From Nostoc desertorum CM1-VF14 (GTDB lineage Bacteria > Cyanobacteriota > Cyanobacteriia > Cyanobacteriales > Nostocaceae), in NCBI GenBank assembly GCA_019359245.1, contig JAHHHR010000012.1, positions 58,243 to 122,242 of the forward strand: a stretch of 64,000 nt of DNA, given 5' to 3'. Below, piece by piece: positions 23,548 through 63,528 of the stretch (its first letter is position 1; each line of letters opens with the position of its first letter). The notes beneath the pieces were generated by a model. The model was not told where the DNA came from. It did not search any database and saw only the letters and a program-made list of their open reading frames with translations. The translations under genes and the position numbers were made by a program.

Positions 23548-25227
23548 TTAACTTGATAATACTCCATCAAAGTATCGATCAATTTCTGCCGTAAGCACTT
23601 CAAAGTCTACAGGCTTGGTTAAGTGGCATTTAAAACCAGACTTAAGCGCAAACTCCCTATCCTCTTGGCCACCGTAGCCAGTAAGCGCAATCAGAATTGA
23701 GCGAGTAAATTTGGAGTCTTTACTCAGTTCCCGTGCAACGGCGAATCCATCCATTTCGGGAAGTCCGATGTCACAAATAATCACATGAGGCTCAAGTTCC
23801 CTTGCAGTTTCTACCCCTGAAATTCCGTTATTGGCAATGAAAACTTCATGCCCGAAGTACTCAAGCACTGCTTTTAATGTTATGGCTGAATCCTCGTTAT
23901 CTTCGATGACTAAAATCTTCAACGATTTTTTAGCCGCTTCTATAATCTCTGAGCCGTTATCCCAAGCTGTAATCTCTTCGCATACAGGGAGAGTGACTTT
24001 GAATTCTGCTCCCAAATTGATCCCTCTACTTGAGGCTTCAACATTACCACCATGAAGTTCCACAAGACTTTTTACTACCGATAATCCCAAACCTAGCCCA
24101 CCCCTCGAACGGTCTAAACTGCGATCAGCCTGGGTAAACGGCTCGAATAGTTCTGGTAAAATTGTCGGGTCTATCCCTATGCCTGAGTCTTTTACAGATA
24201 AAGCTGCTACACTGCCTGAGCCATTTTCACCTGGAATAAATGAGATATCCACCCAGATCATCCCATCTGGCTTGGAAAACTTTAAGGCGTTATCAAGAAG
24301 GTTTCCAAAGACTTGGAAGAATCGCGTCGGGTCAACATAAGCCCACAGAGGCGTGTTTGGTAGGTCTTGTACTACATTAAGGTTCGATTTCTTTATTGCT
24401 TGTGCATGGTCATTGAGACTCTGGCGAACCAATTCCACCAGATTAACCTTCTCCAGGTTTAATGAAATCTTCCCATAGGTGATGGACGATACATCAAGTA
24501 ACTCATCAATCAATTTCGAGAGGTGTTTAATCTGGTGCTGCATCTTTAAAACTGTTTCTCCGACTACACCAGTCTCGCCTAGCTTCAACTTGAGAAGCTG
24601 AACCCCATTTGAGATGGGAGCAACGGGATTTCTCAACTCGTGAGCTAGCATCGCAATAAATTTGTCTTTCAGGGCGTTTTGGTTCGTAAGTTTCTGAAAA
24701 AGTTGAACGTTTGCGATCGCTACTGCCGTAGTGTCGGTCAAAGTCTCAAGCAATTCTATCTCTTCGGGTGTGGCTCGGTGTGGTGTACTCCAGTAGGCTC
24801 CGATCGCACCGAGTGGATCAGAAATCCGTATCGGAACCATCACTAAACTCTTGACAAAAGTTACTTTATAAGCATCAAGAGGAATTCGCGCATCCTGATA
24901 AATGTCTTCAATCACGGCTGCTTGTTTATTGAGCATTGCCCAACCGGAGATGCAAGACTTGAGCGGAAAACGCATACCTTTCCAAAGTGGCCCGATGGCG
25001 TTTTCATCGACATAGTGGCAACATTCACCATCCCGCAGTACAAAAGTTACTCCATCAGCATTAGTTAGATCGCGAGCAGCCAAACGCACAATCTCAATAA
25101 TTTCCTCAATAGTCCGTACACAAGCCAAATCCTTCACGACCAAAAGCAGCCTATTGTAAGACGGAATACTATAGCTCTGATGTGAATTTTGTGCTTCAGA
25201 GATGGAGCCTTGTAATATATTTTTCAT
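23548..25227 (-). CDS. Hybrid sensor histidine kinase (GAF - HisKA - HATPase_c - receiver)
   Basis: 559 aa with H-box AHELRNP, G-boxes DSGIGI / GGLGLGLS, and a C-terminal REC domain (VIEDNEDS ... DIGLPEMDG ... LTGY ... K). Confidence 0.9.
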   Translation of the reverse strand: MKNILQGSISEAQNSHQSYSIPSYNRLLLVVKDLACVRTIEEIIEIVRLAARDLTNADGVTFVLRDGECCHYVDENAIGPLWKGMRFPLKSCISGWAMLNKQAAVIEDIYQDARIPLDAYKVTFVKSLVMVPIRISDPLGAIGAYWSTPHRATPEEIELLETLTDTTAVAIANVQLFQKLTNQNALKDKFIAMLAHELRNPVAPISNGVQLLKLKLGETGVVGETVLKMQHQIKHLSKLIDELLDVSSITYGKISLNLEKVNLVELVRQSLNDHAQAIKKSNLNVVQDLPNTPLWAYVDPTRFFQVFGNLLDNALKFSKPDGMIWVDISFIPGENGSGSVAALSVKDSGIGIDPTILPELFEPFTQADRSLDRSRGGLGLGLSVVKSLVELHGGNVEASSRGINLGAEFKVTLPVCEEITAWDNGSEIIEAAKKSLKILVIEDNEDSAITLKAVLEYFGHEVFIANNGISGVETARELEPHVIICDIGLPEMDGFAVARELSKDSKFTRSILIALTGYGGQEDREFALKSGFKCHLTKPVDFEVLTAEIDRYFDGVLSS

Positions 25228-25996: not shown

Positions 25997-27934
25997 CTAT
26001 TTTTTTTTCAGAGTGTTATCTAAAATCGAACCAGCTTTCCATATAGGAGCACCTCGTTCGTATGCACCAATATCAGGTGCATTACCCACAAAATTTTCTG
26101 TAATTCCGGGAATCATCACCCCAGCATCCACGGCTGGAGAGTTTGACTGTAAGGTAAAGTCGGGAATAGATTGGGAGGCTTCTGTAGGAGGTTGAGAAAA
26201 CTTAGGATTTTTATTGATAAACAAGTTATTGGATTGTTTATTGGCAGCTATAGTTTTAGATACCGCAAAAATATTATTACGCGTTTCAATTGAACCTCCA
26301 CCCGTAACCACATCTCCCATAAAAGTATTATTAAATACTCGCTCGTATCCCCGAGGACTACCTACCACTAAGTTATGGTTGTCCTTTCCTCCATTTAAAT
26401 TCCAGACTACATTATGGTGAATGGTGCTGTTAAATGTTTCGATGTCTAAATAAATACCACGAGTTCCCCAGAATGGACTAAAAGCTTGGGCATCCCGAAT
26501 CCAGTTATGATGAATCGAACCACCTTCTAAATTAACGTGGCAGCAAATATAAATAGCACCCAAGTCAGTACTGAGCATACCAAACTGAGAAATGTCATTG
26601 TAGGCAATTTCAATGTTACGACCATCTGTACCTGCGGTATGCCAATCAATATTAATTGCGTCACGACCAGCACGATAGATTGTGTTATGAGTAATTTTAT
26701 GACCATTGCCATTGATGCGGACAGGAGCCGCATAGGACACCATGTAATTACTATTGATAATAATATTATTGGTTACTGTGTGATTGCTACCTTCTAGCAG
26801 AACACCATTACCAGAACTCCATTCGATTATTGAGTTTTTTAATGTATGACTGTTTCCACGTAATTGAATTCCAGTATCATGGGCATGAGAAGTTACAATC
26901 AAAGCATTATCAGAATTAGGGGCTTGTTCTGACTGGGGTAGGGGTGGCAGAGTCATGTGGTGGGACACATATTTAGCCCGAATACCATCAATCACTATAT
27001 TAATGCTGCGATCGCTCGTGGTAATTGTGTTAGCAAATAGGTTTAAATTACGTAAAGAGATATAAGAACGATCGCTTAAATCAAAAGCAAAGTTCCGCTG
27101 TTTTACTTCTACGTTACTTGGGAGCTTACTGTCAGGCGACCAGAGGTAAAGAATTCGACTTTTATAGTCGTAAAACCATTCTCCTGGACTATCAAGTAAT
27201 TCTAATTTGCCAAACAGATAAAACCAAAATCCACCCCTATCCCAAGGAGCACTCATTTGAGCAGTTAACTTTCCTGCTGTTCCACCAGTGATTGTACCTG
27301 TGCGGGTGGTGTACCATTCATTAGTCCAGACTTTCGCACCAGTCCATCCCTCAGACAAATTAGGGATTTCTTTGTTTTCAATACTAGCTAATAGTCCTGC
27401 CTGACTTTTGACACCTCCACCTATGAGACTCGGACGCAGAAAATCTCGTTGTTTTTCATCCATGTTGGGAAAACGGGCTTCCGGCATCATTTCCCGATTG
27501 ACAAATAACTGATTGGCAAAGAAATTTATATCGCTATAGCCATTAACAGGTAAATTCACCTGGCTACGATAAACTGAGTTGCGATCTATAGCCCATCCTT
27601 CAACTAGTTCAGTCCCAGAAATAGTGACATTTTCATTTTTATAAGCTGCAAAGGTTATGGGTGCTTCTGCTGTGCCTGAAACCCCAGGACGAACTTGTTC
27701 ACGATAAATACCTGCTCTTAGCCAACAAGTTTCCCCTGGCTGAACAACAGTGGCACATTTTTGAATGGTTTTAAATGGGCGATCGATTGTTCCAGGATTT
27801 TTATCTGAACCAGTTGGTGCGATAATATAATAATTATTAGGTATTGCAATACTTTTACTGAAAAAAATTAAAATGCCAGGAGAAGTAGCAAAACAAAGAG
27901 AAAAGATTGAGTATTTCAATAGTTTCTTATTCAT
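25997..27934 (-). CDS. Secreted right-handed parallel beta-helix repeat protein (pectate-lyase/NosD-like fold); candidate polysaccharide lyase, hydrolase or epimerase
   Basis: 645 aa with a signal peptide and repeated N..I....G... rungs (HTVTNNIIINSN, HKITHNTIYRAGRDAINI, IHHNWI, IHHNVVWN). Confidence 0.8.
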   Translation of the reverse strand: MNKKLLKYSIFSLCFATSPGILIFFSKSIAIPNNYYIIAPTGSDKNPGTIDRPFKTIQKCATVVQPGETCWLRAGIYREQVRPGVSGTAEAPITFAAYKNENVTISGTELVEGWAIDRNSVYRSQVNLPVNGYSDINFFANQLFVNREMMPEARFPNMDEKQRDFLRPSLIGGGVKSQAGLLASIENKEIPNLSEGWTGAKVWTNEWYTTRTGTITGGTAGKLTAQMSAPWDRGGFWFYLFGKLELLDSPGEWFYDYKSRILYLWSPDSKLPSNVEVKQRNFAFDLSDRSYISLRNLNLFANTITTSDRSINIVIDGIRAKYVSHHMTLPPLPQSEQAPNSDNALIVTSHAHDTGIQLRGNSHTLKNSIIEWSSGNGVLLEGSNHTVTNNIIINSNYMVSYAAPVRINGNGHKITHNTIYRAGRDAINIDWHTAGTDGRNIEIAYNDISQFGMLSTDLGAIYICCHVNLEGGSIHHNWIRDAQAFSPFWGTRGIYLDIETFNSTIHHNVVWNLNGGKDNHNLVVGSPRGYERVFNNTFMGDVVTGGGSIETRNNIFAVSKTIAANKQSNNLFINKNPKFSQPPTEASQSIPDFTLQSNSPAVDAGVMIPGITENFVGNAPDIGAYERGAPIWKAGSILDNTLKKK

Positions 27935-48222: not shown

Positions 48223-51200
48223 TTAGGCAGCTTTCCACCGGCCAATTTCACCGCCGTAGAGGCTGGCATAGTAAAGATTTCCGTCAAGTCCCGTCTCCAT
48301 GTCAATGATATAGGGTAAGTTGTCAAACACTTGAGTAGACTTTACAGTTCCATTTGGATTAAAGAATGTTGTATATATAGTTCCCAATCCAACATCGTTG
48401 TAGAACAATGCACCATTATAAATTGCGGGATAGGAGTTCCCAGTATAAAAGTCACCCATGATTAGGGCAGTAGTTGGCAGCCCATCAGAGTTCTGGCTGG
48501 CATCATGGTTGCGAGTTAGCAATGGAGAAACTACTGTCTGTCCGCTGTTATAGAACGCTTGCGCCTGAGGTAGAGTGCTATACCCTGCATTTTGTGGGGA
48601 ACCTTCAAAGTAAGGCCACCCAAAATTACTGCCCCTCGTTGCTACGTTAATTTCCTCCCATGTGTTCCAACCTACTTCACCGAGATAGGGAGTTCCTGTT
48701 GTTGGGTTGATAGTAAAGCGGAAGGAATTTCGCAATCCGAGGCTCCACACCTTGGAGCGGTTGCTGTCCAGATTACCGTTGGAGAATGGATTGTCGGCAT
48801 ATCCTTGTCCGGTGAGAGGATTAATCCGCAGCAGTTTGCCAGATAAATTATCGACATCTTGGACGCGAGTTGATCGCCAGTCAACTGAGTTGTAGGAAGT
48901 TCCATCCCCAACGGTGACATACAACGATCCATCGAGCCCAAATTGAACTTGTCCGATACTATGGCTGTCACTGTCACCTGCCAAGTAGTCTCTGATATTG
49001 TTGTTGTGATCAAAGTTGGTATCTGTTGCCGAATAGTCTCTCCCAATATTACTAGTGTCCGCATCTTCAATTAGTGCTGGCGGTGCTGTAATAGTTGAAC
49101 CATTGACAATTCCAGAGGGAAGGGTGGTGAAGCTAACCGTACTATCCACATCGGGACGGCTGGTGTATTGCCAGAGACTATTCTTGCCGAGCAATACCAC
49201 TTCACTGTTAGGCAATGCAGTGGTGTAGTTTGTGGCGGGGTTAGCCGTCACTCTGATCAGACGGGCGGGACGATTCCCAAGTCCATCTGGACCTGCTAAC
49301 CCTGTGTTATTTTGGGTTTCTGGGGGGTCATAGGTAAATAGTAGGTAGACATAGTCCCGACCTTGATTTTGACCAAAGGACGGATCGACAGCCAGCCCTA
49401 GTAAGCCGCGATCAGCCACATTATTGACCTGCGCTGAAATATCTATAAAGGGTGTAGGCCGAAGCCCTAAGGACACTGGTAATGGAGCAGTGCTCGTGTT
49501 GATCAGCACCCCAACGTCGCTGGTGTGCCAGTTGGCAGTAGCAATATCGGCTTTACCGTCATTATTAAAGTCAGCTACATTCAGACTAAAGGGAGTCCGG
49601 CCCGTAATGTAAGTGCTGGGAGCGGCAAAGGTGCCATTGCCGTTTCCAAGCAACACACTAATCGTATTACCTCCAGGATTATCGTTGTTGGGATAGTTGC
49701 CCGCTGTATTGGCCGTAAGCAAATCGAGTATGCCATCACCATTGATGTCACCGATCGCCACACCCTTGGGCACGCTACCCGTTGCATAGCTCGCGACTGG
49801 TGCAAAGCCACCGATGCCGTTACCTAGCAACACCCCTACCGTGTCAGCGTATTCGTTCGCGGCAACGAGATCGATCCGACCATCGCCATTTAGATCGGCT
49901 GCGCGGAGTGAGTGGGGACCATCGCCAATAATATAATTCGATGTACTACCAAAGATCCCAGCACCAGAATTAAGTATGACACTTATTGCATCAGTACCCT
50001 GGTTGGCAACTGCTATATCGGCTCTGCCATCGCCGTTGAAATCGGCAAGCTGAAGAGAGTGTGGTGCACTACCAACAACGTAGTCAGCGAAGTTCCCGAA
50101 CGTGCCGTTACCATTATTTCGCATGATGCGGACGATCGTGCTCCCCCATCCAGTCACGGCGATGTCGATGTCACCATCCCCATCCACATCTGCGGCTACT
50201 GCTTCATGGGCCCCAGTTGATCCCGCATAGCTGACACTAGGCGCAAAGGTTCCATTACCGTTACCGAGTAGTACATTGACATTGTTGGAGGTCTGGCTGG
50301 CAGTAAATAAGTCAAGCCTGCCGTCACCATTGAAGTCTGCCGCAAACACTGATTTCGGCTCAACTCCAACTCCAAAGTTGACAGCAGGGGCAAAGGTGCC
50401 ATTACCGTTGCCGAGTAGGACACTGACGTTGTTACTGCCAGCATTGGCGGTCGCTAAGTCAAGCCTGCCGTCCCCGTTAAAATCGGCTGAAACGATTCCA
50501 TGGGTGTGAGTACCAGTGGCATACTGCTGAACGGGAGCGAATCTCACGGTATTATTTGGCTGTACGAAAGTTCTGACTACCCCACCTTTTTCGGCGATGA
50601 ACATTAATTGACCATCTGGTGACCAATCGAATGTAGTAGGCTGGTTCAAACCGCCAACTATCTGCTCCCGTGGTAAGGTCAATAGTCGAGGTGGTGGTGG
50701 GGTGTATGTACCTATGACCAATTGGGCATCTGCCCAGTCGGCATGATCCGAACCAAAACCATTGCCCCCATCGTTTACCACTAGCGTTAGGGTTTGTTTG
50801 CCTGTGACATCGACATTCGCTAACTGCGTATCACTGAGTCCTGTCATGACTCCACTGTCAAAGAGGACTACTCCATCTGCCAAAATCCGGAAGACTACGG
50901 AGCCATTTCTACCGACTTCGTCATCTACTCCAACATAGGCGAAGAAACTATTGTAAGCTCCTGCAAGATTGTAGGTGATCTGAGAGCCAGCATGGACTCC
51001 CAGTCCTTTAGCATAGGTCACACCATTGAGTGTCAATGTGTTACCATCAGCTGCTTCTTGTTCACCATTTGAGCGATCTCTTTCGACTGGTCCATAGCCG
51101 TTGGTTGATGAGGCAAAAGGGAGATCGCTCAGGTACGTTAGAGTTGGCGCAGATCCGTCGCGAATTGAGATCGAAGAAGTGCGAGATGGTCCGAGATCGG

Positions 51201-53718
51201 CACCTGTAGGATTTTGAATCAACAAACTGACTGTTGTATTTGTATTGGCAGCACCATCATTGAGCGTTTGAACGGTGACCATTTTCTGGGTTTCGCCTGG
51301 TGCAAAGGTCAGGGTGCTAATCGGAATCGGGACGTAGTTGACATTCGGAATCGCCGTTGAGTTACCGCCAGTAAAGTAATCGATTGTCGCGACTCCCGTA
51401 GTATCTCCTAGTCTTTGAATTGGGATTGTGACAATGCTGCCTTCTGCTACCTGAGAGCTATTGGATCCAACCACCAAGATGGATTCCACCGTGTTCTGAA
51501 AGGTGCCTAATAGGGTGTCAGCAGATGTAGTGTTACCAAAGGAATCTCGCACTTCTCCAGCTAATAAGGTCGCAGTGTAGGTACCGCGATCGTTCCAATT
51601 CCAGATGCTATCGGGTGCTGTAATCTGATACGTGGCGGTTACCGATGGACTGTTTGTGTTGGGTGTCACACTCACCAATTGAGCTAGTTGAGAGAACCCG
51701 TTCGGTCCAGTGACCCGAACATCACTGCTGTTAATTGTACTGACGTTCACCGCAGTAGCATCTGCATATGTAACACTAAATGCGTAAGGTGCAGAAATAC
51801 TAGTACTGATTGCTGCTGCTGTTAGAGTAGGAGTTGGGGTGCTGGTATCGGGACCCGACGGAACTGAAGTCAACCGAGCACCCGCCCAATCGGCATGGTC
51901 ATACCCAAACCCATTCCCGCCATCAGTTACCACCAGTCGCAGGTTCTGTCTCCCCGTCACATCGACATCCACAGTACGCGTGGCAGTGATGCCCGTCATT
52001 ATGCCACTATCATAAATCTGTACCCCATCAGCCCACACTTGGAAGACGACGGAGCCATTGCTGCCCACCGTATCATCTACGCCAATATCTGAAATAAAGC
52101 GAGTATAGCTCCTGCCTAGGGCGTAAGTCGTATCCGAGCCAGCATGGACTCCCAGTCCTTTAGCATAGGTCACACCGTTGAGTGTCAATATGCCACCATC
52201 AGTCGCTCCTTGTTCGCCGTTGGATCGGTCTCGCTCGATAAGTCCCCAGCCATTCGTCGCCGATGTCGCTGTCAAATCGCTTAGATAAACAGTCGTTCCC
52301 ACTACAACCTGGAAAGTTCCTAGGGTTGCCGCCGCGATCTCATTGCTGCTGGTATCGCTGACTTGAGTACTTTCCAGCGCGACAATATAGGTTCCCGCTT
52401 CGTTTGTATCCCAACTACCACCCGGAGCCCCAATCTGATAGGTTGCTATAATTTGCAAACTGTTAGCAGCAGGAGTTGCGCTGATAAAAGTAGCTGCTTG
52501 ACTGTAGCCATTGAGACCTGTCACCAACAGGTCATTGGAGTCTAGAGTACTAAAATTGACAGCAACATTATCCCTGTATGTCACTGTGAAGGTATAGGGA
52601 GTAGTGCTGCTGGGCACTGTTGTCAGTGTGCTAGCGTTGAGCGTTGCAGATGGAGGGGTAGTATCAGGTGTAGGAGTGCTTGCAATGAGTTGAGCATTTG
52701 CCCAATTGGCATGGTCATAAGCAATGCCGTCGCTTCCACCAGTAACCACCAACCGCAGGTTCTGTCTCCCAGTCACATCTACATCCACGGTTTTTGTGAT
52801 ACTGCTACCAGTCATTATTCCACTGTCGTAAATCTGTACCCCATCTCCCCAGACTTGGAAAACGACGGAGCCGTTGTTACCAACCTCATCGTCTACACCA
52901 ATGTCTGAAATAAAGCGGGTATAGTTCCTCCCCAAGGCGTAGGTAATGTCCGAGCTAGCATGGACTCCTAGTCCTTTGAGATAGGTCACACCATTAAGTG
53001 TCAGTGTGCCTCCATCTTCTGCTCCTTGTTCACCGTTGGACCTATCTCGTTCGGCTGGCCCCCAGGCATTTGTCGCCGATGTCGGTGTCAAATCACTCAG
53101 ATAAAAACTCGGTAAGATTCCTTGGTAGGAGTCCATCAAGGAAGTTGTGAAAGGTATAGCCGTTTCAATCTTGCCAGTAGCATACTCCAGATTCCAATCG
53201 CCACCTTGCAGGGAATTGCCTGTAGGATTTGTAGAGGCTGCAACATCCGCTCCAGTCAAAGCACTTATCTCGTTGACGAATGTTTGCCCGAATTCTCCGG
53301 CCGCAATATTACATCCGTAAAAAAGAATATCCGCTCCTGGAACAAGAGATGATTTCCATTGTTTTATCTCATTTGCATATTCTTGAAGGGAGTTCGCACT
53401 GAGAAAACTGTTTCCTAATTGCAGAGCCGCAACATTTCCATGGGAAATGATATTAATGCCTGACAAACCCTCATAGTGCTTGAGAGTTTCGGTTATTTGG
53501 GTAATCCCGTTTCGAGTAGGATCTAGGAGAATTTTGACATCTGATTGCAGGTTTACTAAGACTGTTAGAGGATTGGAAATATTTTGATCGACAAAAGTAA
53601 TCGTTTGTGGACTTATTAAGTTGTTTCCAGGAAATGCTGGTAGTTGTAGAGGATTTGTGAATTGCTGTGGAACTAATGGCGATTCAAATGTCTGGATAGC
53701 AAAATAATTGTCTAACAT
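48223..53718 (-). CDS. Giant multidomain protein: DUF4347 - 3x NPCBM (with Ig-like spacers) - Calx-beta - PQQ-type glucose/sorbosone-dehydrogenase-like propeller interrupted by a seven-repeat FG-GAP/VCBS block
   Basis: 1831-aa uninterrupted ORF. Approximate nt spans on the minus strand:
- DUF4347: 53110-53718 (ILFYGCNIAAG..LTGADVAAS..GGDWNLE).
- NPCBM: 52688-53103, 51871-52287 and 50719-51135 (YLSDL..WGP.ERDRSNGE..LNGVTY.KGLGVHA...DHA.WA.A.L).
- Calx-beta: 51190-51480.
- FG-GAP x7: 49495-50520 (DFNGDGRLDL...).
- Dehydrogenase-like segments: 50570-50690 and 48223-49480. Confidence 0.88.
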   Translation of the reverse strand: MLDNYFAIQTFESPLVPQQFTNPLQLPAFPGNNLISPQTITFVDQNISNPLTVLVNLQSDVKILLDPTRNGITQITETLKHYEGLSGINIISHGNVAALQLGNSFLSANSLQEYANEIKQWKSSLVPGADILFYGCNIAAGEFGQTFVNEISALTGADVAASTNPTGNSLQGGDWNLEYATGKIETAIPFTTSLMDSYQGILPSFYLSDLTPTSATNAWGPAERDRSNGEQGAEDGGTLTLNGVTYLKGLGVHASSDITYALGRNYTRFISDIGVDDEVGNNGSVVFQVWGDGVQIYDSGIMTGSSITKTVDVDVTGRQNLRLVVTGGSDGIAYDHANWANAQLIASTPTPDTTPPSATLNASTLTTVPSSTTPYTFTVTYRDNVAVNFSTLDSNDLLVTGLNGYSQAATFISATPAANSLQIIATYQIGAPGGSWDTNEAGTYIVALESTQVSDTSSNEIAAATLGTFQVVVGTTVYLSDLTATSATNGWGLIERDRSNGEQGATDGGILTLNGVTYAKGLGVHAGSDTTYALGRSYTRFISDIGVDDTVGSNGSVVFQVWADGVQIYDSGIMTGITATRTVDVDVTGRQNLRLVVTDGGNGFGYDHADWAGARLTSVPSGPDTSTPTPTLTAAAISTSISAPYAFSVTYADATAVNVSTINSSDVRVTGPNGFSQLAQLVSVTPNTNSPSVTATYQITAPDSIWNWNDRGTYTATLLAGEVRDSFGNTTSADTLLGTFQNTVESILVVGSNSSQVAEGSIVTIPIQRLGDTTGVATIDYFTGGNSTAIPNVNYVPIPISTLTFAPGETQKMVTVQTLNDGAANTNTTVSLLIQNPTGADLGPSRTSSISIRDGSAPTLTYLSDLPFASSTNGYGPVERDRSNGEQEAADGNTLTLNGVTYAKGLGVHAGSQITYNLAGAYNSFFAYVGVDDEVGRNGSVVFRILADGVVLFDSGVMTGLSDTQLANVDVTGKQTLTLVVNDGGNGFGSDHADWADAQLVIGTYTPPPPRLLTLPREQIVGGLNQPTTFDWSPDGQLMFIAEKGGVVRTFVQPNNTVRFAPVQQYATGTHTHGIVSADFNGDGRLDLATANAGSNNVSVLLGNGNGTFAPAVNFGVGVEPKSVFAADFNGDGRLDLFTASQTSNNVNVLLGNGNGTFAPSVSYAGSTGAHEAVAADVDGDGDIDIAVTGWGSTIVRIMRNNGNGTFGNFADYVVGSAPHSLQLADFNGDGRADIAVANQGTDAISVILNSGAGIFGSTSNYIIGDGPHSLRAADLNGDGRIDLVAANEYADTVGVLLGNGIGGFAPVASYATGSVPKGVAIGDINGDGILDLLTANTAGNYPNNDNPGGNTISVLLGNGNGTFAAPSTYITGRTPFSLNVADFNNDGKADIATANWHTSDVGVLINTSTAPLPVSLGLRPTPFIDISAQVNNVADRGLLGLAVDPSFGQNQGRDYVYLLFTYDPPETQNNTGLAGPDGLGNRPARLIRVTANPATNYTTALPNSEVVLLGKNSLWQYTSRPDVDSTVSFTTLPSGIVNGSTITAPPALIEDADTSNIGRDYSATDTNFDHNNNIRDYLAGDSDSHSIGQVQFGLDGSLYVTVGDGTSYNSVDWRSTRVQDVDNLSGKLLRINPLTGQGYADNPFSNGNLDSNRSKVWSLGLRNSFRFTINPTTGTPYLGEVGWNTWEEINVATRGSNFGWPYFEGSPQNAGYSTLPQAQAFYNSGQTVVSPLLTRNHDASQNSDGLPTTALIMGDFYTGNSYPAIYNGALFYNDVGLGTIYTTFFNPNGTVKSTQVFDNLPYIIDMETGLDGNLYYASLYGGEIGRWKAA

Positions 53719-54234: not shown

Positions 54235-55494
54235 TTATACTTTTTGTTGACCAAAAGTAAAATACAGTTGTTGTTGCTCAACTTGAGACGTGGTTTTATC
54301 TGAGGTATTTTCAATTAAAAATAGCCCCTTGCGTCTTAGGGATTGTTCAATAAGAACCTCCTTTAAAATATCTTCAGAAAACTGTTCTTGCTGGACAAGA
54401 AGCTCTCCTAACTTATGGTTAGTAGCACTTTGTAACGCTAGAATTTTATCCAGAAACTGCTTTCTTACAAGCTTTTTTTCTAATACAAGGCTACCAAATT
54501 GAATATTTTGGTTCTTCAGATAAAACTTTAACTGTTTTAAAGATATTAATTGCTTTGACACTAAAATTTCACCAATTTTTAAATTTGGGTTTAAACTTTG
54601 CTCTAGTAAAGCTTGTCTGATATCTTCTCTAGTTACAATATTTTGTCGAACAAAAATTTCACCAATTTTTTCAGGCGTAAAATCTAAATTTTCTATATCT
54701 GTTCCTAATAAAAGATTCTTTGTTTGATTAGAATTATGCTTATGGGTGATTGCCAACTCCTTAATAGCTAAATAGATAAAATATGGAATTGTTGAAGCGT
54801 AACGCTTCCAAAGACGAAGTGGCTCTTGTGTTAACCGATACAACCATTCCAAACATAATTGTTGAACCCAATGGGGAGCGCGTGGAGTAATCCCTGCGTA
54901 CATAGAGAATACTGCACCTACACCAACCATTACTGCTTGAATCTTTCCGTGATAGTGGGACATCCAAATTTCCTGTTTAGGACATCCCAAACAAACAAAA
55001 ATAATTCCCGCACCACTTTGATTAATTTCTTCAATTAATTCTGTATTATGACTTTTGTCAATCTCATCAATAGGAACAAAGGGAATGGATTTCATTCCTG
55101 CAACTTTTAAAATCGGATATTCTTCGTCTAGTTTTCGCTTAATTTTGTCTAAAATCTCTTGTGTAGAGCCAAGAAAATAAACTGGCTTTCCAGTGATTTC
55201 AGCTAAAGCACACAAATTAAGGAAAACATCCATTCCTGATACTTGATTTTGGTGATAAATCCCCAATTGGCGTAACATCAACACTAAAGGCTTGCCATCA
55301 GGGGTAACCAAATCTGCTTTATTTAAAATTTTTCTAAATGAAAAGTTCCAATGGGCTTCCATAAGCATATGAACATTGGCTAAATAGACAACCTTACTAG
55401 CCCTCATATTTGCCCAGCGCAAAATTAACATAATCTGCTCATCCAAAGGCAAACACGTAATAGGAACATTAAACAAACCTTTCTTGGGTATCAT
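54235..55494 (-). CDS. WecB/TagA/CpsF-family (GT26) glycosyltransferase fused to four C-terminal MshEN/T2SSE_N-like 24-residue repeats
   Basis: 419 aa. The N-terminal 250 aa or so carry the GT26 pattern (V..ANVH......PDG.P.V......FLG.....GCPKQE.W...........GVGA.F). The C-terminal repeats (nt about 54343-54670) are KIGEIFVRQNIVTREDIRQALLEQ, KIGEILVSKQLISLKQLKFYLKNQ, QFGSLVLEKKLVRKQFLDKILALQ and KLGELLVQQEQFSEDILKEVLIEQ. Confidence 0.85.
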   Translation of the reverse strand: MIPKKGLFNVPITCLPLDEQIMLILRWANMRASKVVYLANVHMLMEAHWNFSFRKILNKADLVTPDGKPLVLMLRQLGIYHQNQVSGMDVFLNLCALAEITGKPVYFLGSTQEILDKIKRKLDEEYPILKVAGMKSIPFVPIDEIDKSHNTELIEEINQSGAGIIFVCLGCPKQEIWMSHYHGKIQAVMVGVGAVFSMYAGITPRAPHWVQQLCLEWLYRLTQEPLRLWKRYASTIPYFIYLAIKELAITHKHNSNQTKNLLLGTDIENLDFTPEKIGEIFVRQNIVTREDIRQALLEQSLNPNLKIGEILVSKQLISLKQLKFYLKNQNIQFGSLVLEKKLVRKQFLDKILALQSATNHKLGELLVQQEQFSEDILKEVLIEQSLRRKGLFLIENTSDKTTSQVEQQQLYFTFGQQKV

Positions 55495-56255: not shown

Positions 56256-56736
56256 TCAGGTTAGCTATTTTGCTAACACTATTACAACAAGCGATCGCAG
56301 CACTGGGATAGTGATTGATGGTATTCAGGCTAAGTATGTTTCCCACCACATGGCTCTGCCACCCCTACCGAAGTCAGAAAAAGCTTATGAATCTGATAAT
56401 GCTTTATTTTTGGCTTCTCATACTCACGATACTGGCATTCAGTTACGTGGTACTAGTCATACATTCAAAAACTCTACTATCGAATGGAGTTCTGGTAATG
56501 GCGTACTGTTAGAAGATAAAAACCATACAATAACCAACAATATTATTGCCAGCAGCAATTACATGGCGTCCTATGCGGCTCCTGTCCGTATCAATGGCAA
56601 TGGTCATAAAATTACTCATAACACTATCTTTCGCGCTGGTCGTGACGCAATTAATATTGATTGGCATACCGCTAGTACAGACGGTCGTAATATCGAAATC
56701 GCTTACAATGATACTGCTTTACTAACTTCTGTATAA
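56256..56736 (+). pseudogene. Internal fragment of a beta-helix gene paralogous to 25997..27934, in inverted orientation
   Basis: The translation ..FANTITTSDRSTGIVIDGIQAKYVSHHMALPPLP...HKITHNTIFRAGRDAINIDWHTA.TDGRNIEIAYND aligns with residues about 300-450 of the 645-aa protein. Stops lie immediately upstream and homology is lost after AYND. Nucleotide identity is roughly 80-85% by eye. Confidence 0.8.
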
Positions 56737-57015
56737 AAATCCTTGAGCAAACTTTGCTCTTGAATAGTCATAGTCTATCCAAAGAACTTCAAGATAACTC
56801 TTTCAATCGCTTCGTAAAGGCAATTGCCTCTAAAGGTTCCAATGCGAATCTGCAAAGATATAACACTTAGAATGCTCATGCATAGCCGATTCATCTATAG
56901 CTATTAAACTAGGCTCGATTTAGCCTACAGGCTACTCCTAGATAGATTAGATGTTATTTATTAAATTCTATTGACGAATCAAAGCTTAGAGTACACCCTA
57001 AAAAAATAATTGAAT

Positions 57016-59193
57016 ATGCATATTTTAATAGCAGCTTTACATAGACCTATTCAACCAACTGGTATTTGCAGACATGCTGCTAATCTAGCCCACTGCTTAG
57101 CAGAAAATAAAGAAGTTACCAGAATCAGTTTAGTTATCGGATCTTGGCAACAGCATTATTTTAAAGCTGCTTTTTCTCTTGATTCTGAAAAAATTAAACT
57201 AATCATTGTCAACATCAAAAACAGTTCCGTTGTCAGGAATAGTTGGTTTCTCAGTGGCTTACCTCAATTAGCAAATAATCTCGGTTCAGATATTGTTCAT
57301 CTTTCCTTTCCTTTTCCTTTTTTTAGAGCTAGTTTTAACGCTTATGTAGTTACTACAATTCATGATTTATACCCCTACGAATGTCCTGAAAACTTTGGTT
57401 TTCCTCAAGCTTGGTTTAATCGTTTATTTTTTAAGCAATGCATTAGCAATAGCGATGGACTTGCTTGTGTATCTCAAGTTACATTAGAAAAACTAAAAGT
57501 TTATTTTCCTCATCTTGATCCACATAAAGAAATCGATGTGATTTATAATTATGTTGATTTTGAAAAGTTAGAACCTAAAATACCTCAACAACTACCGAAA
57601 AACAGTTCATTTTTATTGTCTGTTGCCCAGCATCGTCAAAATAAAAATTTAGATTTATTGATTAAAGCTTATTCTTGGTTATTAGATAACAAAAAATTAA
57701 ATCCAGATGCTAAGTTAGTGATTGTCGGTACTTCTGGGCCTGAAACTCAAAATATTAAGAATTTAATTAGCGATTTATCTTTAGAGACTAAAGTAGTTTT
57801 GCTAGCAGCCATCGATGATTCAGAATTATGCTGGCTATATCAAAATTGCCAAGCTTTTGTAATCCCATCCTCTACAGAAGGTTTTTGCTTGCCCCTAGCT
57901 GAAGCGTTGTATTGGAGTAATATAATTGTATGCTCTGACATACCAATTTTTAGAGAAATCGGTAGTTATAAATGTACTTATTTTTCTTTAGAAAATGATG
58001 CTGTTAATAATCTCGGTCAAGCCATTATTCAATCTATCAGTAGGTCTAGTTTATCAAGCTATACTAATGTATCTCGTTTTGAGAAGTCAAATATAGCCAA
58101 GCAGTATTTAAATTTATATTCTAGATTAAATCTAGAAGAAGAAACCCGATTTTTGAAAAATATACAAGAGACTGAAAAACTCACTAAGGTAAAATTTACT
58201 ATTACTACCTTAGATGAAAGAATTATCATACAAATTCCTGAGAAATTGAGCGTATTTGAAGCACTAAATTTAAAGCAGATTTGCCAAGAAATAACCCAAA
58301 GAGAGGCTATTTTCAAAGAAATAATTATTGACTTCTACCAAACAATTTTTATGGACAGTAGCGGTTTAGGAGCTTTGGTTAGTATTTGGAAAACTGCTCA
58401 AGCAAAGGGAATTATCGTGCTTTTCAAGAATGTTACACCCCAGGTTTGGTCAGTGTTAAGCCTGACAGGGCTAGATACAGTTTTTTCTATTAAATCTAGT
58501 TTTGAAACACATTTTATAGCAACAGATTATGCCTTGGATAAGGAGAGGGCTTTTCGCATGAACAAAGACCAGCTCCCAGCAACTCATCTTTCTGTAAAAT
58601 CTTGGATTAAAAGATTTATAGATGTTATTGGTGCTTTAGTTGGTTTAGTTATAATAGGAATTGTGTTTGTTCCGGTTGTAATTGCTATTCAAATCGATGA
58701 TCCTGGGCCTATTTTCTTTAGCCAAGTTCGTTGTGGTTGGATGGGTAAGAAGTTCAGAATTTGGAAGTTTCGCTCTATGTGTATAGATGCAGAAGCGAAA
58801 AAATCCCAAGTTAAAAATCAAGTACAGGGTGCTTTTTTTAAGAATGAACAAGACCCCAGGGTTACGAGAGTCGGTAAATTTATTCGGCGAACCAGTATTG
58901 ATGAACTGCCACAATTTTGGAATGTGTTGAAAGGAGATATGAGTTTAGTTGGGACGAGACCACCCACACCTGATGAAGTAGAACATTATGAAGTACCACA
59001 ATGGCAGCGTTTAGACATCAAACCAGGAATGACGGGAGAATGGCAAGTAAATGGTCGATCTAGAGTCCGTAGTTTTGAAGATGTAATTCGCATGGATTTG
59101 TTCTATCAACAGAACTGGAGTCTGATGTACGATTTGAAGTTGATTGTTAAAACTTTCGCCGTTCTGTTTACTAAAAATAGTGGCGCTTACTAA
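57016..59193 (+). CDS. Triple fusion: GT4 glycosyltransferase - STAS (SpoIIAA-like) domain - polyprenyl-phosphate sugar phosphotransferase (WbaP/EpsL-type bacterial sugar transferase)
   Basis: One continuous ORF; I prefer the ATG at 57016 to the TTG at 57010.
- GT4: VIPSSTEGFCLPLAEAL.
- STAS, nt about 58186-58500, with FMDSSGLGAL.
- TM helix plus sugar-transferase core, nt about 58602-59190: DDPGPIFFSQVRCG..GK.F.IWKFRSM, RVT.VG.F.R..S.DELPQ..NVL.G.MSLVG.RP, ending ..GAY. Confidence 0.85.
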   Translation: MHILIAALHRPIQPTGICRHAANLAHCLAENKEVTRISLVIGSWQQHYFKAAFSLDSEKIKLIIVNIKNSSVVRNSWFLSGLPQLANNLGSDIVHLSFPFPFFRASFNAYVVTTIHDLYPYECPENFGFPQAWFNRLFFKQCISNSDGLACVSQVTLEKLKVYFPHLDPHKEIDVIYNYVDFEKLEPKIPQQLPKNSSFLLSVAQHRQNKNLDLLIKAYSWLLDNKKLNPDAKLVIVGTSGPETQNIKNLISDLSLETKVVLLAAIDDSELCWLYQNCQAFVIPSSTEGFCLPLAEALYWSNIIVCSDIPIFREIGSYKCTYFSLENDAVNNLGQAIIQSISRSSLSSYTNVSRFEKSNIAKQYLNLYSRLNLEEETRFLKNIQETEKLTKVKFTITTLDERIIIQIPEKLSVFEALNLKQICQEITQREAIFKEIIIDFYQTIFMDSSGLGALVSIWKTAQAKGIIVLFKNVTPQVWSVLSLTGLDTVFSIKSSFETHFIATDYALDKERAFRMNKDQLPATHLSVKSWIKRFIDVIGALVGLVIIGIVFVPVVIAIQIDDPGPIFFSQVRCGWMGKKFRIWKFRSMCIDAEAKKSQVKNQVQGAFFKNEQDPRVTRVGKFIRRTSIDELPQFWNVLKGDMSLVGTRPPTPDEVEHYEVPQWQRLDIKPGMTGEWQVNGRSRVRSFEDVIRMDLFYQQNWSLMYDLKLIVKTFAVLFTKNSGAY

Positions 59194-59229
59194 GGCATTC
59201 TTCTGGCACTGTTGGGTGGAACGATTGTA

Positions 59230-59746
59230 CATACGCACTCGAAATTAGCTGCCACAGCCGATGAACATGGCGGTTTGATTTGGGCAATTGATGCCTTACA
59301 GCTAGAAGGTCACGGGAATTTGTTATATGTGTTATATAAAGTATTAAAAACTACAACTTTTATGTGATAAATACGGGACTAACTTATTGCACTGTTATGA
59401 TATTCCTGGCTTACTACTAGATAACCTGAAGATGGAAGCTATGTTTAAACATTTGCGTCGTCACCAGCGGCGAATTAGGGGATGCAAATCTACTGCCGAA
59501 TTACGTGATTTTGGGCAATATCAAGTCCTCTTTCTTGCTGAAAGCGAAAAACAGCTACTTGAGCAAATTCAGCAAGTACCTGTAGCTCAGTATAAAGTTC
59601 AACGTCGTAGATTAGCTTTGTCCGAACTCCTCGCCAACGCAAACATCGCCTTCACCATCAGCCAATTACCACAATACAAGCTTTGGTTAACTAACATACG
59701 GAACTTCTCTCTGTGCTTGATTCTCAAGCTCTCACATACCAATTAG
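59230..59746 (+). mobile_element. Degenerate transposase remnant (family uncertain, possibly ISKra4-like)
   Basis: The fragments ..HGGLIWAIDALQLEGHGNLLYVLYKVL.. and ..YDIPGLLLDNLKMEAMFKHLRRHQRRIRGCKSTAELRDFGQYQVLFLAESEKQLLEQI.. lie in different frames with stops. The pattern recalls cyanobacterial transposases; the family call is from memory only. Confidence 0.4.
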
Positions 59747-59750
59747 ATAG

Positions 59751-60491
59751 CTAGGGTTCGGAGTGCTTCGATCTAAAGTCAGCGATCGCGCTACTCCTCC
59801 CAATATTAACCAACTCCCCATCAACAACCGCAATCCCCCATTGCGGAAACTTCGCCAGCAATTTCTTGATCGCAATCTGCAACGCCGGATCATCCCAACA
59901 CTCCTGTTGAGGTCGCATATCTGACCTCGCTACAATCGCTTCATGCGACCATTTCTCAGCACTGGGGACAGGCGCGGCGGAACTTTTACCCTCATGATCT
60001 GCTTTGACTTCTACACCTGAAGCTGAATTTTCAGTCTTTAACGAAGTGGGGAGGGTTGCTTGTGCTTGGGCAAGTTCAAGCAAATCAGTTAAATTTTGAG
60101 CGACGGACGCGGCGGAATCAGTACCTTCATGACAGTCCCTCGAGTCAATACCACAATCTTGGTTTTCAGCCAACAAAGAAGCGGGATTACTTTGTGCAGC
60201 ATCCACAAGCATTAACGTCATGCAGTCCATTGCCACAGGCAAGTCAACTTCATTCTCTGACACGCTTACAACAATCTGAGGCGACGCGACCCCCAAGGGA
60301 GCGTGAGCCGTCTCTTCCTCACGCGAATTTCCTGTAAGCGTATCAGAGATACATCTCACAAACTCATCAAATGAGTTTGTGAGATGTTCCTGAGCAGTTC
60401 GTAAGGTTTCCTGAAACCCCTGCTCTGACTTATTTTGGACTAAAATAGATGCTTCATATAAAGCACGCATTCCTTCAGAGCCAGCATTCAT
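59751..60491 (-). CDS. Hypothetical acidic, low-complexity protein
   Basis: 246-aa ORF that looks more GC-rich than the flanking island genes. No family recognised. Confidence 0.45.
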   Translation of the reverse strand: MNAGSEGMRALYEASILVQNKSEQGFQETLRTAQEHLTNSFDEFVRCISDTLTGNSREEETAHAPLGVASPQIVVSVSENEVDLPVAMDCMTLMLVDAAQSNPASLLAENQDCGIDSRDCHEGTDSAASVAQNLTDLLELAQAQATLPTSLKTENSASGVEVKADHEGKSSAAPVPSAEKWSHEAIVARSDMRPQQECWDDPALQIAIKKLLAKFPQWGIAVVDGELVNIGRSSAIADFRSKHSEP

Positions 60492-61392
60492 CTCTCAATC
60501 TCCGGCATTTGGTTCTTGTTTTTCAGAATTGTTTTTCTCCCAAAATTCTTTCATTAGGTACCATGTAAATTCTTCACCATCCAGCTAGCTGTTTCTCGTC
60601 CATCCTCTATGGACGACCGATTGATGAATAGCTGAGGCACTGGCGCAACCAGAGAAGGCAAGGGGTACACAGCCGGGAAATGGATTTGCACTTAATAAGA
60701 AATTACCAGCAGGACGACGGACGGCAGTTGAAGCGTTTGAAGTCATACACGTTGCCTGATACGGTGTATCTTATGTTTCGGTAATACTCAAGTGCCACTG
60801 GCTTTGAGCCACAAATATATGGCTACGCCAAACCTTTTTGGGAGCGTTGTGCTAAACCACAACGTTGTTTGCACATATAACAAAGGCGATCGCCCTCGTC
60901 TGGTAAACAAAGCGATCGCCTTTTCCCCGATTAACCAACTTTCGATGCTTGGAGCGTCTTTTAGTCATACCCAGACCCCCTGAAAAATCAATGTCGTTTT
61001 GTCTGGTATTGCCTACTTTCACTCATAAGTTGGTATTTGAGTCCTGACTGTATTAATTAGTAACCATGTACTATGTTGGGTCTGCTTGTAGCCTTCTTCT
61101 GTTTGGTTAAAGCAGAATAGTAAAAACCTGAAACCTATAATTGGTAAGGGTTTTCAGCTTCTATTTCCGTTTTTGCAGCTAAAAAATAGATAAAGTTGTG
61201 CTAAAAAAGAATTTCCCAATGTAGGTAAAGTGAGCTTTTGATGACTAAAGAGACAGGATCAGGCATTTGGATATGTTAGTCTCAGCAACCTCAACTAGGG
61301 TCTGTCATCAATTAGCTAAGATTACTCAAGCATCTTTTATGACTTTTTAGAATCAAATAGCCCTCCGTTGAATCTTTAATTAAAGCAGACAT

Positions 61393-63528
61393 ATGAAAAC
61401 AAGTAAATCTCATCAAATAGAGTCAATTAATCAAAGTTACCAAAATTATGAAGCTGCGGAAGGCGGATTAAATTTAATTGATTTAAAAGACAACATTATC
61501 CGGCAGATTCATATCGTATTAGGAATAACTATTTGTATGTCTTCTTTAGCTTTTTTTAGCGCACTCAGGCGTACTCCTACTTATCAAGCTAGTTTTGAAA
61601 TACTGTCTGAGCGAGTAAGTATTGAAACAAAAGTTACTTCTTCTGTTTCACAATCCAAAGAAACCACAGAAGACATTGGGGCTGTCACTTTAGACGAAGT
61701 ACAAATAAAAAACTTAAAAAGTCCTGATATCATTACGCCTGTCGTTACAAAACTAAAATATAAGTATCCAGGAATTAATAATGACTCAATTACTAGCACA
61801 CTAACCTTAAAAGCTGATGAGAAAAAAGGCATTTTAGAAGTAGCTTACCAAAACAGCGATCGCCAACAAGTTAAAGATGTTTTAGAAGCGTTAACAAAAG
61901 CATATTTGAACTATAGTTTAAAAAGAAGACAGTCCGGAGTAAATCGAGGACTAGATTTTTTAAACCAGCAAATTCCCAGAATACAGACTAAGGTTAATAT
62001 ACTTAATTATAAAATCCAACAATTAAGAAAAAAATATAATATTATCAACCCACAAATTCAGGGTTCTCAAATATCTCAAAGGATAGATAGTTATATTATT
62101 AAGCAAGTTGAATATAAATCACAACTAGAAAAAACTCAAAAGCTAGCTGGTCTTGCTAAAAAAGAACTCAATGAGCGGTCTACTACATCAACTACAGCTA
62201 TGCTAATTGGTACTTCCCGATACAATGCATTATTGGAAGATATACAAAAAATAGATAGTGAAATTGCCAAAAAATCCGTCATTTTTTCAGATCAAAGCAT
62301 CCAAATTCAAAATTTACAAGAACAAAGACGATCCATAGTTTCTCTAATAAATCTAGAAATTGCCACTATCCAACAGAAAATTGACAATCAGATTAGGTTA
62401 GAAAAAGAACAGGTACAAGCTATTAATGAAGAAATAGCAAATATCCAACAAAATTTCCAAGAATGGTTAGAGGCTACAGGACAATACGAAAATATCGAAC
62501 GAGAAATGACAATCACAGTAAAACAGCTGAATGAACTTTTAATTCAAAGAGAAGCCCTACGACTGGAATCTGCTCAAAAAGAAGCTCCTTGGAAGTTACT
62601 TACTCTCGTAGGAGAACCCAACACAAATGCTGCTAGTATTGCTAATTATATAGTATTGGGTACCCTCTTAGGGTTGTTGATTGGTGTAGGAGCAGCATTG
62701 CTCTTAGAGAGCTACCAAAATCTAGTTTACAATCCTAATCAAATTCAAGAAATTACTAATCAACCAATTTTAGGAATTATTCCCTTTAACCGCTATTACA
62801 AAAAATTGTATTTTCTGAAAAAATTCAATTCAATTATTCCACCATATTCAAAAACAGAGAAGTCAAAGAATAAAGATTATCATAAAAACTTTACTTTCAA
62901 TAATATGCTCTTCCCACCTGTGGAAGCTTATGCTTTTTTAGGATCTAACTTGGGTTTGTTTGAAAAGGATAAAAATATTCATTCTTTGATTATTACTTCC
63001 ACGGTATCTGGTGAAGGAAAATCTACTGTAGCGCTTAATTTAGCTAAAGTAATAGCTGCGACAGGAATCAGAGTCTTAGTTGTTGATGTTGATGTGCGTA
63101 ATCCAGATAATTTAACTAGCGCTATGGCATTAAATTCAATCAAAGGTCTAAGTGATATTTTATCGTCTGATAGTTTAAGTACTGAGATAAATGTCAAGAA
63201 CGTTATTCAAAAATCTTTTTTAGGTGAGAATTTATTTATTTTGTCATCGAGAAATGCAAGTAGTGATGTTAATACTAGTTGCTTACTAGCTTCTTCTAAA
63301 ATGCGAGACTTGATGAAAGAATTACAACAGATATTTGAGTTAGTAATCTACGATGTTGCTTCTATTGTTGATTATGCCGATGTAAATTTGTTAGCTAATC
63401 ATGCTGATGGAGTAGTTTTGGTAACTGGTTTAGGTAAATTACCAGGTTTAAAGCTCAAAGAAGCTGTTTCTCAATTAAATATATCTAAAACACCTGTTTT
63501 GGGTGTAGTAATTAATAATTTGGTCTAA
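61393..63528 (+). CDS. Polysaccharide co-polymerase (Wzz/GumC/Wzc-like, PCP-2a architecture) with a C-terminal P-loop kinase-like domain
   Basis: 711 aa: TM1 (IVLGITICMSSLAFF), a long coiled-coil periplasmic region, TM2 (IVLGTLLGLLIGVGAALLL), then STVSGEGKST (Walker A), VLVVDVDVRNP (Walker A') and ELVIYDVAS. There is no C-terminal Tyr cluster. Confidence 0.85.
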   Translation: MKTSKSHQIESINQSYQNYEAAEGGLNLIDLKDNIIRQIHIVLGITICMSSLAFFSALRRTPTYQASFEILSERVSIETKVTSSVSQSKETTEDIGAVTLDEVQIKNLKSPDIITPVVTKLKYKYPGINNDSITSTLTLKADEKKGILEVAYQNSDRQQVKDVLEALTKAYLNYSLKRRQSGVNRGLDFLNQQIPRIQTKVNILNYKIQQLRKKYNIINPQIQGSQISQRIDSYIIKQVEYKSQLEKTQKLAGLAKKELNERSTTSTTAMLIGTSRYNALLEDIQKIDSEIAKKSVIFSDQSIQIQNLQEQRRSIVSLINLEIATIQQKIDNQIRLEKEQVQAINEEIANIQQNFQEWLEATGQYENIEREMTITVKQLNELLIQREALRLESAQKEAPWKLLTLVGEPNTNAASIANYIVLGTLLGLLIGVGAALLLESYQNLVYNPNQIQEITNQPILGIIPFNRYYKKLYFLKKFNSIIPPYSKTEKSKNKDYHKNFTFNNMLFPPVEAYAFLGSNLGLFEKDKNIHSLIITSTVSGEGKSTVALNLAKVIAATGIRVLVVDVDVRNPDNLTSAMALNSIKGLSDILSSDSLSTEINVKNVIQKSFLGENLFILSSRNASSDVNTSCLLASSKMRDLMKELQQIFELVIYDVASIVDYADVNLLANHADGVVLVTGLGKLPGLKLKEAVSQLNISKTPVLGVVINNLV

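Follow-up and report, generated by a model that had tools for sequence, protein, structure and literature searches.

A family 4 glycosyltransferase fused to a STAS-phosphoglycosyltransferase in a narrow Nostoc clade

In Nostoc desertorum CM1-VF14, a glycosyltransferase of family 4 (GT4), a SpoIIAA-like STAS domain and a small monotopic phosphoglycosyltransferase (PGT) are encoded as one polypeptide of 725 amino acids (aa). The complete open reading frame (ORF; 725 aa plus stop) occupies positions 57016..59193 on the plus strand of the 64-kb stretch of contig JAHHHR010000012.1 analysed here (GenBank assembly GCA_019359245.1, positions 58,243 to 122,242), which we refer to as the window; positions given below are those of the window, and residue numbers are those of the 725-aa protein. 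The gene sits in an exopolysaccharide (EPS) cluster with several glycosyltransferase genes, an ABC exporter and Wzc. An original prediction, made from this DNA alone, had read the ORF as a STAS domain placed inside the enzyme that commits sugar to the lipid carrier, with no characterised example known. Both statements need revision: a PGT preceded by a STAS domain is a pre-existing, widespread protein, for which a 2026 study characterised one member, All4160 of Anabaena PCC 7120 (PMC13555669), and it is the GT4 that has been appended to the N-terminus. The sole new part is this N-terminal GT4, restricted to a narrow Nostoc clade. The protein described here varies a known design within one lineage and introduces no new principle of regulation.

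Translation of 57016-59193 is uninterrupted over 725 codons and ends in ...NSGAY before the stop codon; a TTG at 57010, two codons 5´ of the start of the ORF, is an alternative start. Pfam matches bear out the predicted series of three parts. Residues 1-375 (57016..58140, plus strand) form a GT4 module of the retaining type, matched by Glyco_transf_4 (aa 16-183, 1.7e-12) and Glycos_transf_1 (aa 191-342, 6.2e-26). Both the two-domain GT-B architecture and EX7E, the marker motif of GT4 enzymes, are present, the latter as E288...E296 in EGFCLPLAE (57877..57903, plus strand). In a comparison of conserved columns, the module kept all 43 of the 43 positions that are at least 95% conserved among 115 stand-alone homologues, EX7E included; for these homologues NCBI uses the name glycosyltransferase family 4. 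The junction that follows (aa 376-392, NLEEETRFLKNIQETEK; 58141..58191, plus strand) was delimited by alignment to P0002, the closest stand-alone GT4 (84% identity).

The STAS domain (aa 393-497; 58192..58506, plus strand) is readily detected by hidden Markov models, as Pfam STAS matched aa 399-497 (1e-11), scoring 44.9 bits where the gathering score is 22.6; the NCBIfam model ant_ant_sig gave 48.1 bits on the fusion protein, slightly below its cutoff of 53.45. Sequence matches in the PDB (TM1442, 1.3e-9; SpoIIAA, 2e-5) and AlphaFold2 (AF2) modelling agree with this assignment. The motif FMDSSGLG (aa 445-452) is identical to that of SpoIIAA in 1TH8, and Ser448, the first serine of DSSG and the predicted phospho-acceptor (58357..58359, plus strand), aligned with SpoIIAA Ser58, the phospho-serine of that protein. 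The codons of Ser448 and Ser449 lie at 58357-58362, exactly where they had been predicted. Across an alignment of 68 STAS-PGT proteins, D-S-S-G (aa 447-450) is invariant. Between the STAS domain and the membrane helix lies a poorly conserved linker (aa 498-530; 58507..58605, plus strand), which has 39-62% identity to paralogues compared with 83-86% for the PGT core.

The PGT core itself (aa 531-725; 58606..59190, plus strand) matched Bac_transf (aa 532-718, 8.4e-66) and, among PDB sequences, WbaP (7e-39) and PglC (1e-30). At its start is the sole Kyte-Doolittle peak of the protein (aa ~531-565; 58606..58710, plus strand), a predicted membrane helix that holds a helix-breaking proline (FVPVV) and aligned to the N-terminus of PglC (8E37, 8G1N), with the PGT part as a whole covering PglC residues 7-186. 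By analogy with PglC, this segment would be re-entrant. With one re-entrant hydrophobic segment, all three domains would be cytoplasmic and the fusion would be topologically sensible. Because the NCBIfam EPS_sugtrans, WbaP and WcaJ models matched solely with their C-terminal catalytic half, we assign the core to the small PglC-type monotopic PGTs, which are without the four-helix bundle of the large PGTs. The Asp-Glu pair established from PglC as the catalytic dyad is present as Asp629-Glu630 in SIDELPQ (58900..58905, plus strand) and is invariant in the STAS-PGT family alignment; this dyad and the single proline-containing helix N-terminal to the core are the hallmarks of a monotopic PGT (PF02397). 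Overall, the catalytic residues of the GT4 and PGT parts appear intact. A scan for promoters and terminators around the gene gave no more sites than shuffled sequence.

Judged by comparison among strains, the fused ORF is not an assembly artefact, which had been the first concern to settle about the prediction. An ORF of identical length (2178 nt), with no indel or stop, was present as four distinct alleles among five assemblies, namely the window, Nostoc sp. UHCC 0251 (L007 8825-11002), Nostoc sp. XA013 (L087) and two independent metagenome assemblies with one common allele (L001 and L002). Purifying selection acts on the whole fusion. The pairwise ratio of nonsynonymous to synonymous divergence (dN/dS) among the four alleles was 0.16-0.28 overall, and the variable sites across the ORF fell at codon positions 1, 2 and 3 in the numbers 33, 33 and 86. 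For the GT4 part, dN/dS was 0.05-0.26, and 50 of the 76 variable sites were at the third codon position.

Gene models for this locus disagree. The JGI and Logan gene calls give 725 aa, whereas the NCBI models give 346 aa in the window genome (P0278, starting at TTG codon 380, window 58153) and 343 aa in UHCC 0251 and XA013 (P0279 and P0281, with ATA codon 383 as the start). The shorter models would fit a GT4 that is a decaying gene with a lost stop codon, the real product being a STAS-PGT of ~345 aa made from an internal start, and, in the window, the adjoining Pel9A-like gene shows plain signs of decay. We nevertheless regard this explanation as very unlikely, since the strongest purifying selection in the gene is on the GT4, every highly conserved residue of the 115 stand-alone homologues is kept and the frame is unbroken over its full length in four alleles. 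In addition, no ATG or GTG is found between codons 340 and 445 of the fusion ORF, the TTG at codon 380 is TGG or TTA in the other alleles and ATA is non-canonical. With no start codon conserved at the junction, the STAS-PGT can be reliably made only as part of the fusion; and because the GT4 is under selection and has no stop codon, translation continues into the STAS-PGT, making the fused protein the product. The NCBI truncation is a systematic annotation artefact of this gene, brought about by start codons that are either not conserved (TTG) or non-canonical (ATA). By cutting the protein to the familiar STAS-PGT length, it hides the GT4 half and leaves a conserved GT4 without a protein record.

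The remainder of the protein belongs to a large cyanobacterial family. When aa 378-725 were used as the query, all of the best 120 matches were two-domain proteins from Nostocales consisting of STAS and Bac_transf (PF01740 + PF02397; 331-387 aa, 64-74% identity), which NCBI labels 'anti-sigma factor antagonist' or 'sugar transferase'. In this order, STAS-PGT proteins with lengths of 331-355 aa are widespread. With each GTDB species represented by one genome, a scan turned up at least 413 related loci. Proteins of this kind, All2285 and XssP among them, have been described as widely conserved in cyanobacteria (PMC13555669), and the domain combination of All4160 had already been pointed out by Wang et al. 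2007 (cited in PMC8256260). All4160 is required for the heterocyst polysaccharide layer (Harada, Matsuoka, Ehira, Mol Microbiol 2026, PMC13555669). Its STAS residue Ser74 is phosphorylated in vitro by the kinases Alr3423 and All2284, and its activity requires the SpoIIE-type phosphatase HenR, the loss of which is bypassed by the S74A substitution. Deletion of alr3423 suppresses the henR defect, showing that phosphorylation of All4160 is inactivating, and the kinase and phosphatase genes are unlinked to all4160 (all PMC13555669). XssP of Synechocystis sp. PCC 6803 (WP_011153594.1, encoded on pSYSM) is the priming glycosyltransferase essential for synechan (Maeda et al., PMC8205485). By Pfam it consists of STAS and Bac_transf, and it is 48% identical to the Nostoc protein over 322 aa; its STAS site is DSAA, not DSSG, and we found no phosphorylation study of XssP in the literature. 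DSSG is also absent from the distant STAS-PGT representatives P0307 and P0358.

The Nostoc fusion has the features of this family in that STAS is directly followed by Bac_transf in one polypeptide and the serine motif is kept. It departs from the family in the position of the STAS domain, which is internal, behind a GT4 of 375 aa, rather than N-terminal as in the relatives of ~320-355 aa. Because of this internal STAS domain and the GT4 module before it, we class the fusion as a variant of the STAS-PGT type. Its likeness to All4160 extends to a STAS domain directly N-terminal to a small monotopic PGT, a STAS serine open to phosphorylation (in the fusion by prediction), a host among the Nostocales, a polysaccharide pathway and regulators that are, or in the fusion would be, unlinked. 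All4160 differs in having no GT4, so that its STAS domain is at a free N-terminus, and in serving the heterocyst envelope, whereas the fusion gene lies in an EPS cluster. XssP likewise combines STAS with Bac_transf and primes a Wzx/Wzy-type EPS cluster, but is without GT4 and has the DSAA site.

In light of the All4160 precedent, we lean towards a reading in which the fusion is a bifunctional enzyme, with the PGT initiating synthesis, the GT4 adding a following sugar, and Ser448 being gated by an unlinked RsbW-type kinase and SpoIIE-type phosphatase such that the phospho-form is inactive. On one membrane-anchored, cytoplasm-facing chain, the PGT core would start the EPS repeat unit on polyprenyl phosphate and the GT4 would most likely extend the lipid-linked product by one of the sugars that follow. 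Going by the homologous All4160, initiation would be turned off when a serine kinase of the RsbW type, with its gene elsewhere in the genome, phosphorylates Ser448, and turned on again by a SpoIIE/PP2C phosphatase. As the GT4 shares a chain with the STAS-PGT, two consecutive steps would be placed, at 1:1 stoichiometry, under one switch and one promoter. Phosphorylation of Ser448, its off sign, the kinase and phosphatase responsible and the GT4 step are all inferred. The original prediction had also proposed phosphorylation- or binding-dependent gating of polymer initiation. For phosphorylation that proposal was right in kind, given what is known of All4160 Ser74, Alr3423 and HenR (PMC13555669); the window itself holds no such kinase or phosphatase.

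Several observations weigh against this bifunctional, phospho-gated enzyme. The 64-kb window has no gene for an RsbW/SpoIIAB-type kinase, a PP2C/SpoIIE phosphatase or a second STAS protein, and none was seen in the flanking DNA inspected at the fusion loci of UHCC 0251 and XA013. The equivalence of Ser448 and All4160 Ser74 is a presumed one, based on the motif and the shared architecture. Sandwiched between two other domains, the STAS domain could be hindered in docking a kinase, and an AF2 model of the STAS-PGT part, built from 68 sequences, could not be used to judge how the domains are arranged (mean predicted local distance difference test score, pLDDT, of 52; the STAS domain alone was confident, with pLDDT 77-89). 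The STAS segment, taken with the linker, had a dN/dS of 0.24-0.96, above that of the GT4 in most allele pairs, on very few substitutions. A neighbor-joining tree without bootstrap support, on which the STAS-PGT of the fusion sits on a long branch beside the EPS type, and gene context both group it with the EPS-cluster paralogue and not with the majority Nostocales copy; its regulators could therefore differ. Finally, the NCBI pipeline annotates the STAS-PGT part alone. As for the regulators, no linked kinase or phosphatase was found near any STAS-PGT context type examined, and since those of All4160 are unlinked as well, their absence from the window is expected and uninformative.

The main rival to phospho-gating accepts a real bifunctional GT4 and PGT and takes the STAS domain to be a spacer, a scaffold or a ligand- or partner-binding module. 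The absence of kinase and phosphatase genes from the window and the inspected flanks speaks for this view, as does a dN/dS of the linker and STAS domain above that of the GT4, with the reservation that few substitutions were counted. P0307 and P0358, which are without DSSG, and the DSAA of XssP show that parts of the family can do without the site, and there is a precedent in other proteins, such as the SulP transporters, the STAS domain of which functions without phosphorylation (PMC8256260). However, FMDSSGLG is identical in four of four alleles, DSSG is invariant in the 68 close relatives and the few substitutions at highly conserved STAS positions (R410K, F419L, L426I and L470F) are all conservative, while the missing regulator genes say little when those of All4160 are not linked either. 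On balance, we consider a STAS domain without a phospho-switch unlikely. The signal might instead flow in the reverse direction, with the STAS domain titrating an RsbW-like kinase or anti-sigma factor so that the state or abundance of the EPS enzyme feeds back on transcription. The motif is, after all, identical to that of SpoIIAA, a genuine antagonist; a non-phosphorylatable All4160 STAS domain binds kinases more strongly in two-hybrid assays, and the Hmp and Hcy partner-switching systems of Nostoc still have unexplained outputs (PMC13555669). We hold such a reversal to be highly improbable, as no data suggest a sigma-factor output and regulation of the enzyme itself accounts for the All4160 genetics, in which henR loss is suppressed by S74A or by loss of alr3423.

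Elements of the fusion can be recognised in other known systems. Glycosyltransferase-PGT fusions form an established class known as Bi-PGTs (PMC11626204; PMC10942596), and small PGTs carrying regulatory domains have already been noted in the literature. In the Bi-PGT class (O'Toole, Imperiali, Allen), a second catalytic domain, for example a glycosyltransferase, is fused to a monoPGT core. From its sequence the Nostoc protein would belong to this class, with an extra catalytic-type domain (the GT4, with EX7E and 43 of 43 conserved columns) on a monoPGT core; it differs in that a signalling domain separates the two catalytic domains. We found no literature description of the three-part order glycosyltransferase-STAS-PGT. 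With SpoIIAA and RsbV the fusion has the STAS fold in common, and its phospho-site motif is that of SpoIIAA, but it is a multi-domain protein with no adjoining kinase/phosphatase operon and no sigma-factor output, and the object of regulation is the STAS-bearing enzyme itself. With its STAS domain embedded in an enzyme, and with no kinase, phosphatase or sigma-factor gene in the window, the fusion is not a member of the canonical partner-switching systems, though it may work in a similar way. Phosphorylation-dependent post-translational control of an initiating PGT is also seen for EpsW-EpsZ of Myxococcus xanthus and CapB1-CapM of Staphylococcus aureus. These systems are without STAS: EpsW is a receiver-domain protein that acts in trans on a large dimeric PGT, and CapB1 is a tyrosine kinase that phosphorylates the PGT CapM directly.

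The GT4 addition is narrowly distributed. All three domains at full length were found in one further protein cluster in 5.8 billion, P0001 (95% identity), from the same Nostoc clade, and all other relatives of the GT4 half are stand-alone enzymes of ~400 aa. The locus of P0002 is syntenic with that of the fusion, comprising genes for a large protein rich in carbohydrate-binding modules, a 424-aa WecG, a Pel9A-like beta-helix protein and the GT4, and is then followed by a P-II gene, not a PGT. The first part of the junction resembles the C-terminal tail of P0002 (MLERASQVLKK...; ...YLNLYSRL-LE----LK), and homology to STAS-PGT proteins starts near aa 385-393. With the GT4 tail present and the STAS-PGT homology beginning a few residues later, both parent genes are nearly complete.

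The other STAS-PGT loci occur in distinct contexts. In the majority type (type I, 75 loci) the gene lies among housekeeping genes, and in type II (4 loci: L074, L078, L083 and L085) it lies directly 3´ of genes for Alg14 and an Alg13-like protein. In an 'EPS' context (P0121, P0129 and P0140), the gene is at the head of a cluster with Wzy, glycosyltransferase, Wzc and WecG genes. A GT4 homologue within 10 kb of the STAS-PGT gene was found at none of 79 other genome loci. Loss of a stop codon between long-standing neighbors was rejected as the origin of the fusion on this count and because P0002 is followed by the P-II gene. Shared ancestry through the divergent WecG was rejected as well, with the WecG of the window being 28-31% identical to that of the EPS-type STAS-PGT loci. 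The type II loci (for example, L078 3597-10999) also carry genes for undecaprenyl-diphosphate synthase and a DAC-domain protein (diadenylate cyclase type) a few kb upstream, and a gene for a Clp-type AAA+ ATPase downstream of the STAS-PGT.

Synteny among the three fusion-bearing strains breaks 6 nt past the stop codon. XA013 has an IS66-family transposase gene immediately downstream (L087 11171-13283), and UHCC 0251 has genes for a single-domain response regulator and a REC-PAS histidine kinase (L007 11490-13524). In the window, 59194-61392 showed no similarity to the IS66 transposase of XA013, and two ORFs downstream of the fusion (59387-59746 and 59751-60491) had no Pfam match. We conclude that a rearrangement at a spot prone to mobile elements joined a STAS-PGT in frame to the 3´ end of the GT4 gene in a WecG / Pel9A-like / GT4 locus. 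Synonymous divergence (dS) among the fusion-bearing strains was about 0.10, and we conclude that the event was recent, took place in one Nostoc lineage and predates the divergence of these strains.

The survey for fusions in other genomes that the original prediction called for returned GT4-STAS-PGT proteins from the same Nostoc clade, and fusions with other glycosyltransferases from other cyanobacteria. In an exhaustive HMMER search with the full fusion protein against 1.84 billion representatives, no further GT4-STAS-PGT was among the best 150 matches listed. Ten longer matches were scanned with Pfam, and these included WecG-STAS-PGT proteins (P0288 and P0431; 600-607 aa, six contigs) and Alg13-like-Alg14-STAS-PGT proteins (P0302; P0318, P0433 and P0435; 673-738 aa, more than 15 contigs). 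The latter group includes RefSeq WP_103670627.1 from Pseudanabaena sp. BC1403, and P0432 was grouped with P0302. Both types have the order glycosyltransferase, STAS, PGT and all keep DSSG, as in the Nostoc fusion, but their glycosyltransferases are of other families (GT26-type WecG and the split Alg13/14 type, as opposed to GT4). This difference marks them as independent fusion events, so that a glycosyltransferase has been fused in front of a STAS-PGT at least three times, from the unrelated families GT4, WecG and Alg13/Alg14. The immediate substrate of WecG/TagA/GumM-type and Alg13/14-type enzymes is typically the product made by the initiating enzyme.

Because such fusions recur, it is possible that STAS makes contact with the next glycosyltransferase. 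A speculative extension, which we think has little chance of being correct, is that STAS normally makes this contact and forms a phospho-controlled hinge that couples or uncouples the hand-off of the lipid-linked sugar, beyond switching the PGT on and off. If true, the committed step would run through a regulated channel of two enzymes, in unfused systems too. The All4160 study provides the genetics of STAS phosphorylation on PGT activity, not the mechanism. Natural glycosyltransferase-STAS-PGT chains offer a compact system for asking whether the control is of catalysis, membrane association or coupling to the next enzyme, and whether two steps share one control point. Bac_transf cores were also seen fused to other N-terminal domains, namely CHAT together with TRADD-like domains (P0346), TRADD-like domains only (P0351) and long TPR arrays (P0359).

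Among the neighboring genes, a divergently oriented WecG/TagA/CpsF-family glycosyltransferase with an MshEN-like C-terminal extension is encoded at 54235..55494 on the minus strand (Pfam, 2.2e-57) and has 97-98% identity in the other fusion-bearing strains. Its C-terminal ~160 aa (54235-54720, minus strand) carry four 24-aa repeats of the form [KQ]xG[ES]xx[VL]...L..Q. Pfam gave no significant match on the extension, and PDB matches were to the N-terminal domains of PilF (6.6e-7), PilB (4e-4) and, weakly, MshE (0.21), with some of the matched PilF entries deposited as cyclic di-GMP (c-di-GMP)-binding domains. The spacing of the repeats fits the MshEN c-di-GMP-binding motif. The repeats thus suggest a possible second, c-di-GMP-type post-translational input into the same pathway through the WecG extension. 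The 342-aa WecG proteins of other STAS-PGT loci are without the extension. Just upstream of the fusion, 56311..56736 (plus strand) is the remnant (141 aa) of a Pel9A-like beta-helix gene, recognised by comparison with XA013: the window has a 1.09-kb deletion at 56268/56269 relative to XA013 (L087 7019-8109), where the ORF is 481 aa. A separate Pel9A-like gene is found at 25997-27934, with a weak Pfam match slightly under the gathering score. Downstream, 61393..63528 (plus strand) encodes the Wzc-type polysaccharide co-polymerase/ATPase of the EPS cluster (Pfam Wzz, CbiA and AAA_31). A hybrid histidine kinase (GAF-HisKA-HATPase-REC), which may regulate transcription of the cluster, is encoded at 23548-25227 (minus strand), on the left margin of the region rich in glycosyltransferase genes. 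Lastly, 48223-53718 (minus strand) encodes a protein of 1831 aa with DUF4347, three NPCBM domains, Calx-beta, FG-GAP repeats and a GSDH beta-propeller (~96% conserved in XA013); this protein, also part of the cluster, is probably secreted and binds or modifies polysaccharide.

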